A stretch of 39,803 nucleotides of DNA, taken from Escherichia phage HC13. The position numbers and the translations under genes were made by a program. Where the stretch lies: sequence record OL362276.1; one strand, given 5' to 3'. The notes beneath the pieces were generated by a model. It was not told where the DNA came from. It did not search any database and saw nothing but the letters and a program-made list of their open reading frames with translations. Below are positions 21,487-23,881 of the stretch, piece after piece; the first letter of the stretch is position 1, and the number at the start of each line of letters is the position of its first letter.

Positions 21487-21510
21487 ACTAAACTATCACT
21501 ATAGGGAGAC
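21487..21510 (+). promoter_or_regulatory. Phage RNAP promoter, perfect class-III type (TAAACTATCACTATAGGGAGACC, +1 about 21504)
   Basis: Best consensus match in the window. The transcript starts GGGAGACC and can pair with GGUUUCCC 20 nt downstream, as in the T7 gene 10 leader. Confidence 0.85.
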
Positions 21511-21611
21511 CAAGAGAAAGACTCAAGGTTTCCCTATTACTTCAGTCCATACGGATTGGGCATACAGTAAGTAATAAACTTTATCTTTCAATTGAATAGG
21601 AGAATTATCAT

Positions 21612-22661
21612 ATGGCAAACGTTCCGGGTCAGAAAGTTGGTACAGACCAAGGTAAAGGCAAATCTGGTTCCGACGCTCTGGCGTTGTTCCTGAAGGTCTT
21701 TGCTGGCGAAGTCCTGACAGCATTCACTCGCCGCTCTGTAACTGCTGACAAGCATATTGTCCGTACCATTCAGAACGGTAAGTCTGCTCAGTTCCCGGTC
21801 ATGGGTCGCACCTCTGGTGTGTATCTGGCTCCGGGTGAGCGACTGTCCGATAAGCGTAAAGGTATCAAACATACCGAGAAAGTGATTACCATTGATGGTC
21901 TGCTGACTGCCGATGTGATGATTTTCGACATTGAAGACGCGATGAACCACTATGACGTGGCTGGCGAGTACTCCAACCAGTTGGGCGAAGCTCTGGCTAT
22001 CGCTGCCGATGGTGCGGTACTGGCTGAGATGGCTATTCTGTGTAACCTGCCGGCTGCATCTGATGAAAACATCGCTGGTCTTGGCAAAGCGTCTGTGCTG
22101 GAAGTTGGTACTAAAGCAGACCTGAACACTCCGGCTAAGCTTGGTGAAGCAATCATCGGTCAACTGACCATTGCTCGTGCGAAGCTGACATCCAACTACG
22201 TTCCTGCTGGCGACCGTTACTTCTACACCACACCGGACAACTACTCTGCAATCCTCGCGGCTCTGATGCCGAACGCTGCTAACTATGCTGCGCTGATTGA
22301 CCCAGAGACTGGTAACATCCGTAACGTAATGGGCTTCGTGGTTGTTGAAGTTCCACACTTGACTCAGGGTGGTGCTGGGGAAACTCGTGGTGCCGATGGT
22401 ATCACTATTGCGACTGGTCAGAAGCACGCCTTCCCAGCTACTGCTACTGGTGATGTTAAAGTTGCTCTGGACAACGTTGTAGGCCTGTTCTCTCACCGTT
22501 CTGCTGTAGGTACTGTTAAGCTGCGTGACTTGGCGCTGGAACGTGACCGCGACGTCGATGCTCAGGGCGACCTGATTGTTGGTAAGTACGCTATGGGTCA
22601 CGGTGGTCTGCGCCCAGAAGCAGCAGGCGCACTGGTTTTCACAGCGGCGCCAGCGGGTTAA
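21612..22661 (+). CDS. 10A: Major capsid protein 10A
   Basis: Near-collinear with T7 gp10A (GKSAQFPV, HTEKVITIDGLLTADV, YSAILAALMPNAANYAALIDPE, HRSAVGTVKLRDLALER, AMGHGGLRPEAAGA). Confidence 0.97.
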   Translation: MANVPGQKVGTDQGKGKSGSDALALFLKVFAGEVLTAFTRRSVTADKHIVRTIQNGKSAQFPVMGRTSGVYLAPGERLSDKRKGIKHTEKVITIDGLLTADVMIFDIEDAMNHYDVAGEYSNQLGEALAIAADGAVLAEMAILCNLPAASDENIAGLGKASVLEVGTKADLNTPAKLGEAIIGQLTIARAKLTSNYVPAGDRYFYTTPDNYSAILAALMPNAANYAALIDPETGNIRNVMGFVVVEVPHLTQGGAGETRGADGITIATGQKHAFPATATGDVKVALDNVVGLFSHRSAVGTVKLRDLALERDRDVDAQGDLIVGKYAMGHGGLRPEAAGALVFTAAPAG

Positions 22662-22924
22662 CGACCTTTAAGGCCCTCTCTACAGAGGGTCCTACCTTAG
22701 AGACGTATAGTTCTACGGTGGGAACCAGCCTGAAGGTTGACTTCCCTGAGCTTTCAGATGTGACTGATTGGTCGCTGCTTGAGGTGACTACGCCTGATGG
22801 TGTTAGCTACTCCCGTAGAACCAACAGTCTCTACTTCAAGGCCACCTCTGGCGTGGAAGGTCTGGTGATTGTTGGGTATGACGGTACGCCTGTGCGTTCC
22901 TTCAACGTATCTTTCACAAACTAA
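21612..22924 (+). CDS. 10B: Minor capsid protein 10B, predicted -1 frameshift product
   Basis: Slippery G GTT TTC at 22635-22641 lies seven codons before the 10A stop. I read the -1 frame as open from 22634 through track ORF 22718..22924. Mechanism known from T7. Confidence 0.5.
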
Positions 22925-22927
22925 TTG

Positions 22928-22972
22928 AAACCCCTTGGGTGCCTTCGGGTGCTTGAGGGGTTTTTTTTTTTG
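22928..22972 (+). terminator. T-phi-like terminator after the capsid gene
   Basis: AACCCCTTGGG...CTTGAGGGG stem followed by a run of 11 T. Resembles T7 T-phi (AACCCCTTGGGGCCTCTAAACGGGTCTTGAGGGGTTTTTTG). Confidence 0.75.
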
Positions 22973-22986
22973 CTTAAGGAGGGACT

Positions 22987-23076
22987 ATGGTCCTTATTTA
23001 CACAGGGTTAGCACTATTCGTCTTATTCTGGGCGTACCTGCTGTCCAGCTCACCGTCTAGCGCCTATGACCGTTAA
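22987..23076 (+). CDS. Small hydrophobic peptide (29 aa) between T-phi and gene 11
   Basis: My own translation: MVLIYTGLALFVLFWAYLLSSSPSSAYDR. SD AAGGAGGG upstream. Confidence 0.35.
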   Translation: MVLIYTGLALFVLFWAYLLSSSPSSAYDR

Positions 23077-23087
23077 GGAGTAAACCT

Positions 23088-23654
23088 ATGGCTCAATACA
23101 TTCCACTGAATGCTAACGATGACTTAGATGCCATCAACGATATGTTAGCAGCTATCGGTGAACCAGCAGTCCTACAGCTTGACGAAGGTAACGCTGACGT
23201 CTCGAACGCTCAACGTATCCTGCATCGTGTCAATCGTCAGGTCCAAGCTAAAGGCTGGAACTTTAACATCAACGAAGCTGCTGTCCTGACGCCTGATGTC
23301 CAAGACAACAGGATTCGATTCCTGCCGTCTTACCTTCGGGTCATGACTGCTGGTGCTACCAGTTACTACAGCAACATGGGGGGCTATCTCTATGACCTGT
23401 CCACTCAGTCCACGACCTTCACTGGACCAATTACAGTCGAACTGGTGGAGATGAAACCGTTCGCTGAGATGCCTGTAGTATTCCGTGACTACATCGTTAC
23501 CAAGGCTAGCCGTGAGTTCAACGCTAAGTTCTTCGGTAGCCCAGAGTCTGAACTGTACCTTCGTGAGCAGGAAGCAGAACTCTATCAGCAGGTTATGGAA
23601 TACGAGATGGACACTGGTCGCTACAACATGATGTCTGACATTGGGAGGGACTAA
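23088..23654 (+). CDS. 11: Tail tubular protein A (gene 11)
   Basis: Aligns with T7 gp11 (INDMLAAIGEP, RILHRVNRQVQAKGWNFNI, GGYLYD, YIVTKASREFNAKFFG, MEYEMD). Confidence 0.93.
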   Translation: MAQYIPLNANDDLDAINDMLAAIGEPAVLQLDEGNADVSNAQRILHRVNRQVQAKGWNFNINEAAVLTPDVQDNRIRFLPSYLRVMTAGATSYYSNMGGYLYDLSTQSTTFTGPITVELVEMKPFAEMPVVFRDYIVTKASREFNAKFFGSPESELYLREQEAELYQQVMEYEMDTGRYNMMSDIGRD

Positions 23655-23881
23655 TGGCTAGTCACAACCTGAAGATTCACCGCCAGCACTTTGGTCCGGT
23701 ACAGCTAGGTCTAAAGACAGCAGAGCTGAGACTTAACGACCGGGACTTTAAGGTTGGCGACTGGCTTATCCTGAATGAGTGGGACAACGGGTATACTGGA
23801 CAACAGGTAGCACGTAAGGTTGTCCACATTGCTGACGTTGGTGACATCGCTGAGGGATACATCCTAATGAGTATGATTTAA
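23654..23881 (+). CDS. ASCH/DUF3850-like small protein
   Basis: 75 aa, SD GGGAGGG. LKIHRQHFGPVQLGLKTAELRLNDRDFKVGDWLILNEW...VVHI fits the phage DUF3850 (ASCH-like beta-barrel) pattern as recalled. Inserted between genes 11 and 12. Confidence 0.5.
   Translation: MASHNLKIHRQHFGPVQLGLKTAELRLNDRDFKVGDWLILNEWDNGYTGQQVARKVVHIADVGDIAEGYILMSMI

Follow-up and report, generated by a model that had tools for sequence, protein, structure and literature searches.

A T7-type -1 frameshift signal in gene 10 of Escherichia phage HC13 leads into a predicted Ig-like capsid extension

Ribosomal frameshifting in gene 10 of phage T7 (Condron, Atkins and Gesteland 1991, as summarised in PMC5009743 and PMC1635266) has an efficiency of about 10% (PMC1635266), and occurs at the -1 site G_GU U_UU C, an accepted variant of the X_XXY_YYZ motif on E. 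coli ribosomes (Atkins 2016 review, PMC5009743). The elements that the T7 event requires 3' of the site are unexplained; one of them is a CCCC of the terminator, lying over 200 nt downstream, which reportedly influences the shift in gene 10 (PMC5009743). In phage T3, a -1 shift close to the end of the major capsid gene adds a domain of about 90 aa before the terminator Tphi; the T3 extension is Ig-like, and that of T7 is not (PMC5009743). The addition of Ig-like domains to phage structural proteins by frameshifting has been described in PMC5009743 and in the Peru-2 preprint (10.64898/2026.06.25.734500). In K1F, the type species of Kayfunavirus, gene10b is a -1 frameshift product that has been fused to GFP (gene10b::gfp) to give viable fluorescent phage (PMC6277420), and to adhesins for display (PMC13370021). 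The sequence record of CR8 (Caroctavirus) gives 10B as a -1 frameshift product, with the remark "matches in mass spectrometry analysis" and the TTTT marked, while the record of Escherichia phage Peacock has a "minor capsid protein" CDS joined from two pieces, and a note on it names -1 frameshifting.

The sequence of Escherichia phage HC13 (OL362276.1), analysed here as a single window of 39,803 nucleotides (39.8 kb), is the complete genome of a T7-like phage that belongs to Kayfunavirus (K1F-like). Its gene 10 region is 98-99% identical to those of many E. coli phage isolates, including EcoIv39_Milel, vB_EcoP-101136BS1 and LM33_P1. Across the same locus Peacock shares 97.8% DNA identity with HC13, and CR8 has the same heptamer and the same extension family, its extension being about 50% identical to that of HC13. 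From Peacock and CR8, HC13 does not differ in kind; it is another isolate. The mechanism, the site and even this extension are already described or annotated, and because Peacock, CR8 and K1F hold such annotations or descriptions, the reading of HC13 given below is correct but not new, and its frameshift adds nothing new in principle. The small additions that are new in a loose sense are the assignment of a fold to phrog_7473 and the codon-level association between the heptamer and the extension.

Gene 10A lies in the zero frame at 21612..22661 (+ strand) and encodes a major capsid protein of 349 aa (36.3 kDa), matching the Pfam family Gp10A-like (E 5e-105) as well as the solved capsid proteins 9vvq (3e-214) and T7 10A (2xvr; 3e-145). 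An exact match to the core of a phage RNA-polymerase promoter (CACTATAGGGAGA) is found 5' of the gene at 21497..21509 (+ strand). With up to two mismatches allowed, five matches to the pattern lie in the window, where chance would give 0.96, and the core at 21497-21509, the equivalent of phi10, mirrors the placement of phi10 in T7 and would be expected to act as a promoter.

The 10A frame ends with GCA CTG GTT TTC ACA GCG GCG CCA GCG GGT TAA, the stop codon TAA being at 22659-22661. Within it lies the slippery heptamer G GTT TTC (22634..22640, + strand), placed as G|GTT|TTC in the 10A frame, a non-canonical X_XXY_YYZ site of the T7 type. A first-pass annotation of this DNA had placed the heptamer at 22635-22641, one base too far downstream, and had put it seven codons before the 10A stop (TTC is seven codons ahead of the TAA, and GTT eight). 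The same annotation called the heptamer a T7-type site, which agrees with the T7 locus, where GGTTTTC stands on the homologous Val-Phe codons after GHGGLRPEAAGA and the 10A stop likewise follows within a few codons. At the equivalent aligned codons the heptamer is also present in K1F, CR8, KP32-like phages and PP74; ahead of the same Ig-like family it varies to CGTTTTC in JA10 and to AGTTTTC in one IMG/VR contig. On the + strand of the whole window, GGTTTTC occurs only twice. The first triplet of the heptamer is GGU, not XXX, and in this respect the site is non-canonical.

No stop interrupts the -1 frame from 22586 up to the TAA at 22922-22924, so that the earlier claim of a frame open from the heptamer to 22924 is borne out on re-translation, including the interval between 22641 and 22718, where a -1 stop would have told against a frameshift and none was found. 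The frameshift extension consists of 94 codons and a TAA (22640..22924, + strand), with base 22640 read twice: the first codon after the slip is CAC at 22640, and the extension runs HSGASG...SFTN. The complete 10B would be encoded by 21612..22640 joined to 22640..22924, with a computed length of 437 aa and mass of 45.9 kDa. The gain over 10A is 88 aa net, or 9.5 kDa. The first-pass estimate of about 95 added residues is therefore close for the extension itself (94) and too high for the net gain, and its expectation of a capsid species about 10 kDa larger fits the computed difference. The predicted junction sequence is ...GGLRPEAAGALVFHSGASGLTTFK, with YAMGHGGLRPEAAGALVFHSGASGLTTFK as a junction-spanning peptide, and ALSTEGPTLETYSSTVGTSLK is an example of a peptide from the predicted 10B domain.

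The open stretch in the -1 frame, at 112 codons, ranks 31st among the 1859 stop-to-stop stretches of the + strand, and of the 30 stretches that exceed it, about 27 correspond by their coordinates to the large + strand ORFs that a co-linear T7-type genome has. The other two frames are closed early: in the 0 frame the next stop comes 12 codons past the 10A stop, closing the frame at 22700, and the +1 frame closes at 22671. It follows that only a -1 shift inside 22586-22661 reaches the extension ORF; stop-codon readthrough and +1 shifting are ruled out by those closures. Since GGTTTTC is rare, the open stretch ranks high and the other frames are closed, the combination of heptamer and open frame exceeds what chance would give.

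Very probably, then, programmed -1 ribosomal frameshifting at G GUU UUC lets gene 10 of HC13 specify two capsid proteins. On this reading most ribosomes would stop at the 10A TAA (22659-22661), while a minority would slip back by one base at 22634-22640, with tRNA-Val and tRNA-Phe re-pairing on GGU UUU, read 94 further codons and terminate at 22922-22924, just before Tphi. The resulting 10B would comprise the full HK97-type capsid subunit as far as ...AAGALVF, a linker of about 20 residues and an Ig-like beta-sandwich of about 73 residues. That slipping occurs in HC13, and with what efficiency, we infer.

The -1 frame might instead be entered by RNA-polymerase slippage on the run of four T that the heptamer includes, or at some other site in 22586-22661. 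Any shift within this 25-codon overlap would give a similar protein, which means that sequence alone does not fix the exact site. Four T, however, are far fewer than the homopolymer runs known for transcriptional slippage. By reading, no other slippery heptamer or X_XXY_YYZ-like motif was seen in frame within 22586-22661, and only GTT TTY shows the conservation described below. For T7, moreover, the shift at this very heptamer has been described as ribosomal (PMC5009743). Together these points leave entry by another route only the slimmest chance, and favour ribosomal slipping at the heptamer.

A mechanical list of ORFs contains the 3' part of the extension as an ORF of 68 aa at 22718-22924, which could be read as an independent small gene ("hypothetical protein" or "gp10.1") translated from its own GTG. 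Most GenBank relatives do carry it as a separate CDS, for example U8, KKP_3263, BUCT-3589 and KP32i195, and protein databases hold the domain only as short stand-alone calls: a search of a large protein database with the extension gave only 28 such ORFs, from phage contigs about 40 kb long, and found the extension neither in another protein context nor fused in frame. The calls themselves are inconsistent, with gene callers giving eight different ORF lengths from 54 to 87 aa, and neither a conserved start nor a ribosome-binding site was found. No Shine-Dalgarno-like motif lies within 18 nt upstream of the GTG at 22718, in HC13 or in any member of its clade. The GTG is not conserved either, being GTA in one relative (L012), while in other lineages the aligned residue is Ala, Leu or Gly, and it is not Val in the KP32, CR8 or L016 lineages; candidate start codons differ in position from lineage to lineage.

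The homology of the extension also begins upstream of the GTG. In tblastn searches with the full 94-residue extension, residues 1-94 align in one piece that overlaps the annotated capsid gene, and the match still reaches the slip site in Klebsiella phages, where identity is down to 42-45%. When eight divergent extensions are aligned, conserved positions are seen upstream of the GTG, which is itself codon 27 of the extension, inside the predicted domain and directly after its first predicted strand (residues 21-26), so that a protein started there would miss a strand. Relative to 10A, furthermore, the ORF never leaves the -1 frame, and no stop separates it from the heptamer in any lineage. The invariant TDWS motif follows the heptamer at 113, 119, 122 or 158 nt depending on the lineage, in every case 2 mod 3, and this frame link survives three linker indels (-3, -9 and +36 nt). 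In lineages without the extension the heptamer, too, is lost. An independent gene is accordingly most unlikely, and the earlier suggestion that the ORF at 22718..22924 is the frameshift extension is supported by the missing Shine-Dalgarno motif, the unconserved GTG, the upstream homology and the linkage of frames.

The practical value of this reading lies in correct annotation, as most GenBank records of the clade and of the KP32-like Klebsiella phages split the extension off into an ORF of its own, called hypothetical or "minor capsid protein" and given an arbitrary start. In proteomics on SH4, a Dev2-like relative, a 36-kDa major capsid protein was the only one listed, from a search limited to annotated ORFs (PMC4925675), and for that reason the SH4 data cannot speak to 10B.

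To follow the heptamer across a wider set of phages, 80 further T7-like capsid loci from IMG/VR (72-97% protein identity) were surveyed together with reference phages, counting as a real -1 extension one of at least 40 codons that ends before the terminator; the counts refer to the 79 loci that encode Val-Phe at the site. Among the 63 of these with a real -1 extension, 61 have GTT TTC or GTT TTT, and the remaining two have GTG TTC together with a T3-type ACA AAG site two codons downstream. Of the 16 loci that lack an extension, 13 have GTC, GTA or GTG TTC; in these 13 the T-run of Tphi starts 38-53 nt past the 10A stop, too close for an extension to fit in between. In the three exceptions the heptamer is intact and the extension behind it truncated or deleted, the spacing being otherwise unchanged. 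Fisher's exact test for the association gives p 2e-10 with kinship ignored, a value that overstates the independence of the loci because they are related by descent. The qualitative picture, as read from these sequences, is clear: the slippery codons are kept where the extension exists and lost where it is absent. In all loci that bear an extension, the stop of the -1 ORF lies 36-48 nt ahead of the terminator T-run.

Both the heptamer and the open frame could be inherited relics, with the extension drifting and not meaningfully expressed. The 10B protein of T7 is non-essential, which fits such a view, and so do the damaged extensions found behind an intact heptamer, truncated in L041 and L064 and affected by a deletion in L013/L036, which suggest that the extension may be dispensable. 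Against drift, variable sites in a comparison across the clade fall on the three -1-frame codon positions as 15/10/45 for the domain part and as 5/5/11 for the linker, and the third-position excess is the pattern of translated sequence. Clade-wide, 26 codons have synonymous changes only, compared with 21 that have amino-acid changes. The extension matches 454 phage records, 329 of which cover at least 80% of it, and its domain is conserved across five genera (Kayfunavirus, Przondovirus, Caroctavirus, Berlinvirus and Ningirsuvirus). The HC13 copy is intact, and its protein is 94-99% identical to those of many isolates. A relic is thus very improbable, and a translated 10B extension is the reading that we retain.

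The extension begins with a linker of 20 residues (HSGASGLTTFKALSTEGPTL; 22640..22699, + strand), the first seven codons of which overlap the end of 10A. AlphaFold2 (AF2) predicts the linker to be disordered, with pLDDT below 50 for residues 1-16. Its frame is open in every lineage, its differences in length are all multiples of three, and its T9 is invariant across lineages. The remainder, residues 21-93 (22700..22918, + strand), is predicted from the single sequence to fold after the disordered stretch into a seven-strand beta-sandwich, with block pLDDT values of 83-91. The C-terminal part of the extension would, on this model, be an Ig-like beta-sandwich, the fold by which the T3 10B class is defined, although it has no place in a recognised Ig-like family (Big_2, I-set or FN3). 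Its only family match is to phrog_7473, of unknown function (E 6.8e-37, extension residues 15-94), and in Pfam searches neither the HC13 extension nor three divergent homologues matched any family. A Pfam match to Peptidase_M14 (E 0.14) was dismissed as noise. In BFVD the sole strong match is the "Minor capsid protein" (76 aa) of Pectobacterium phage PP81.

By analogy with T7, K1F and T3, the domain would stand on the outside of a fraction of the capsid subunits, where it is probably a weak adhesion or decoration module. If so, Ig-like display on the capsid bears on adherence to mucus and surfaces, on the immunogenicity of therapeutic phages, and on the use of the capsid for display, as in T7 and K1F.

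Although the slip site is of the T7 type, the extension has no sequence likeness to that of T7. In T7 the 10B CDS is likewise a two-piece join, and the -1 ORF ends just before a Tphi with the shared AACCCCTTGGG...GAGGGGTTTTTT core; the T7 extension, however, is 56 aa long, not Ig-like, and carries an EETLTPAQ..RTRAAN motif, whereas that of HC13 has 94 aa and is predicted to be Ig-like. The distance from the site to Tphi is correspondingly about 290 nt in HC13 and about 220 nt in T7. K1F has the same heptamer, a near-identical 10A end and an identical TAATTGAAACCCC...Tphi junction, but its extension is a short T7-type tail of 48 aa with the RTRAAN motif. Between these two members of one genus, the difference is confined to the cassette between the heptamer and Tphi. 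The likeness to T3 is of another sort: there, as in HC13, a domain of similar size precedes Tphi, but the T3 site is C CCA AAG and its domain belongs to Pfam Big_2 (E 4e-10), in contrast to the G GTT TTC site of HC13 and a domain without a Pfam match. BLASTP of the HC13 extension against the T3 extension gave no match, and the HC13 extension is for this reason not the T3 Big_2 module.

Behind the same heptamer, the loci compared carry T7-type tails, Ig-like phrog_7473 domains, Big_2 domains and, in one case, an extension of about 300 aa; the Ig-like family of HC13 itself is found there in CR8 (Caroctavirus), KP32-like Przondovirus, PP74 (Berlinvirus) and JA10 (Ningirsuvirus). It is conceivable, if rather doubtful, that the stretch from the slip site to Tphi is an exchangeable display cassette and that each cassette brings its own non-canonical stimulator hairpin, some 20-30 nt past the heptamer. 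Such a hairpin in each cassette, if real, could help to account for the 3' requirements of T7 gene 10, which have long lacked an explanation.

The candidates for a stimulator in HC13 are a hairpin at 22670-22693 and the CCCC of Tphi. The terminator (22927..22971, + strand), an intrinsic terminator of the Tphi type with a 17-bp hairpin and a T11 run, starts 3 nt past the 10B stop; its sequence AAACCCCTTGGG...CTTGAGGGGTTTTT is common to K1F, T7 and other lineages, and its CCCC lies at 22931-22934. A long-range pairing between the GCGGGUU that follows the heptamer and the AACCCC of Tphi was considered and rejected, as it would amount to only about 5 bp, and L014, CR8 and the KP32-type phages are without the G-run. 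A search of Rfam over 22400-23150 (E up to 1) gave sub-threshold matches only, three of them overlapping the terminator, and no known frameshift element.

Folding places no stable structure at the usual spacing of 5-9 nt from the heptamer. The nearest stable element is the candidate hairpin (22670..22693, + strand; an 8-bp stem of 22672-22679 with 22684-22691, loop CUAC), which lies 31 nt beyond the heptamer and 10 nt beyond the stop of 10A and may belong to a larger fold. Of the 40-nt folds downstream, the most stable (-18.2 kcal/mol), equalled in only 0.9% of the 100-nt blocks of the genome, starts 47 nt past the heptamer and overlaps the 3' arm of the hairpin. Within the HC13 lineage there is no informative variation and there are no compensatory pairs, as no pair varies on both sides, and we do not claim the hairpin as a stimulator for that reason. 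Most other lineages have a strong, non-homologous hairpin 17-35 nt past the heptamer. As regards the idea that a cassette has a hairpin of its own, the position of about 10 nt past the 10A stop is accompanied by supporting compensatory changes in the KP32-type lineage, where an 18-bp hairpin, non-homologous and similarly placed, has two compensatory pairs (A-U to G-C and C-G to U-A), 98.9% of its cells paired, and a covariation score that was reached in 0 of 500 shuffles.

Several T7-like contigs from IMG/VR carry further cassettes for 10B, the -1 frameshift form of the capsid protein (loci L079, L061, L074, L076, L078, L082, L086, L091, and L052); within this group the Pfam assignment is that of L052, whose Big_2 domain lies behind GGTTTTC, and the others were assigned by appearance. 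The extensions of 86-88 aa in this set resemble, by eye, the Big_2 extension of phage T3, and they are preceded by T3-type NNN AAA G sites (CGCAAAG, CACAAAG, AGAAAAG, and TACAAAG). The 177-aa extension of L079, behind CGAAAAG, looks like a double Ig-like domain. In L084 (IMGVR_UViG_3300034349_000001), the heptamer G GTT TTT leads into a -1 ORF 3' of the capsid gene that has at least 299 codons and may continue beyond the end of the locus. It includes a Big_2 domain (Pfam E 1.6e-11) and about 200 other residues without a Pfam match, among which is the motif FEGDSLT, reminiscent of GDSL/SGNH hydrolases; this extension could be an enzyme made by frameshifting and displayed on the capsid.

Enterobacter phage 04_vB_Eclo_IJM (OP272493; L025) has several CDS in place of one capsid gene, and its extension frame is continuous with the end of 10A, the major capsid protein (GHGGLRPSSRRTGFHSGVSG...); both the split gene and the direct reading from 10A into the extension most likely reflect indel errors of assembly and not biology. 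The ORF list of the window also holds a 337-aa ORF antisense to the capsid gene (21588-22601, minus strand), which is probably a codon-bias by-product of a highly expressed gene and is not supported as a gene itself.

In the KP32-type phages (L018-L021 and L094-L107), an 18-bp hairpin occupies the linker-coding region, 19-62 nt after the heptamer (columns 27-69 of alignment A3). Two compensatory base-pair changes were found in it, both of which alter linker amino acids, and such pairs suggest that selection acts on the RNA structure.

The T-run 3' of the hairpin of the terminator Tphi (22961-22971) comprises 11 T in the window versus 5-10 T in relatives, and is a homopolymer of variable length. 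Between Tphi and gene 11, on the plus strand, lies an ORF for a hydrophobic peptide of 29 aa (MVLIYTGLALFVLFWAYLLSSSPSSAYDR; 22987-23076), which is preceded by a strong ribosome-binding site, AAGGAGG, and for which a Pfam search gave no match. The ORF is apparently present in U8 and appears to be absent from Peacock, since by coordinates gene 11 of Peacock begins at the position where the ORF starts in the window; the region looks like an insertion of about 100 bp encoding a small membrane peptide. At one locus (IMGVR_UViG_2974604219_000001, entered as both L013 and L036), a deletion has taken out Tphi and the latter half of the Ig-like domain, leaving the frame of 10B fused to an ORF homologous to the small hydrophobic one (...TTPEWFFLLKVRMIMFYLLTALGLFVSFWAIILLTGPCSPYDR).

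A further insert separates the tail tubular genes 11 and 12 of the window, namely a plus-strand gene for a 75-aa protein with a DUF3850/ASCH domain (23654-23881; Pfam E 5.8e-19). Gene 11 of K1F is directly followed by gene 12, without this insert. EV136_1 carries an annotated copy of the same insert.
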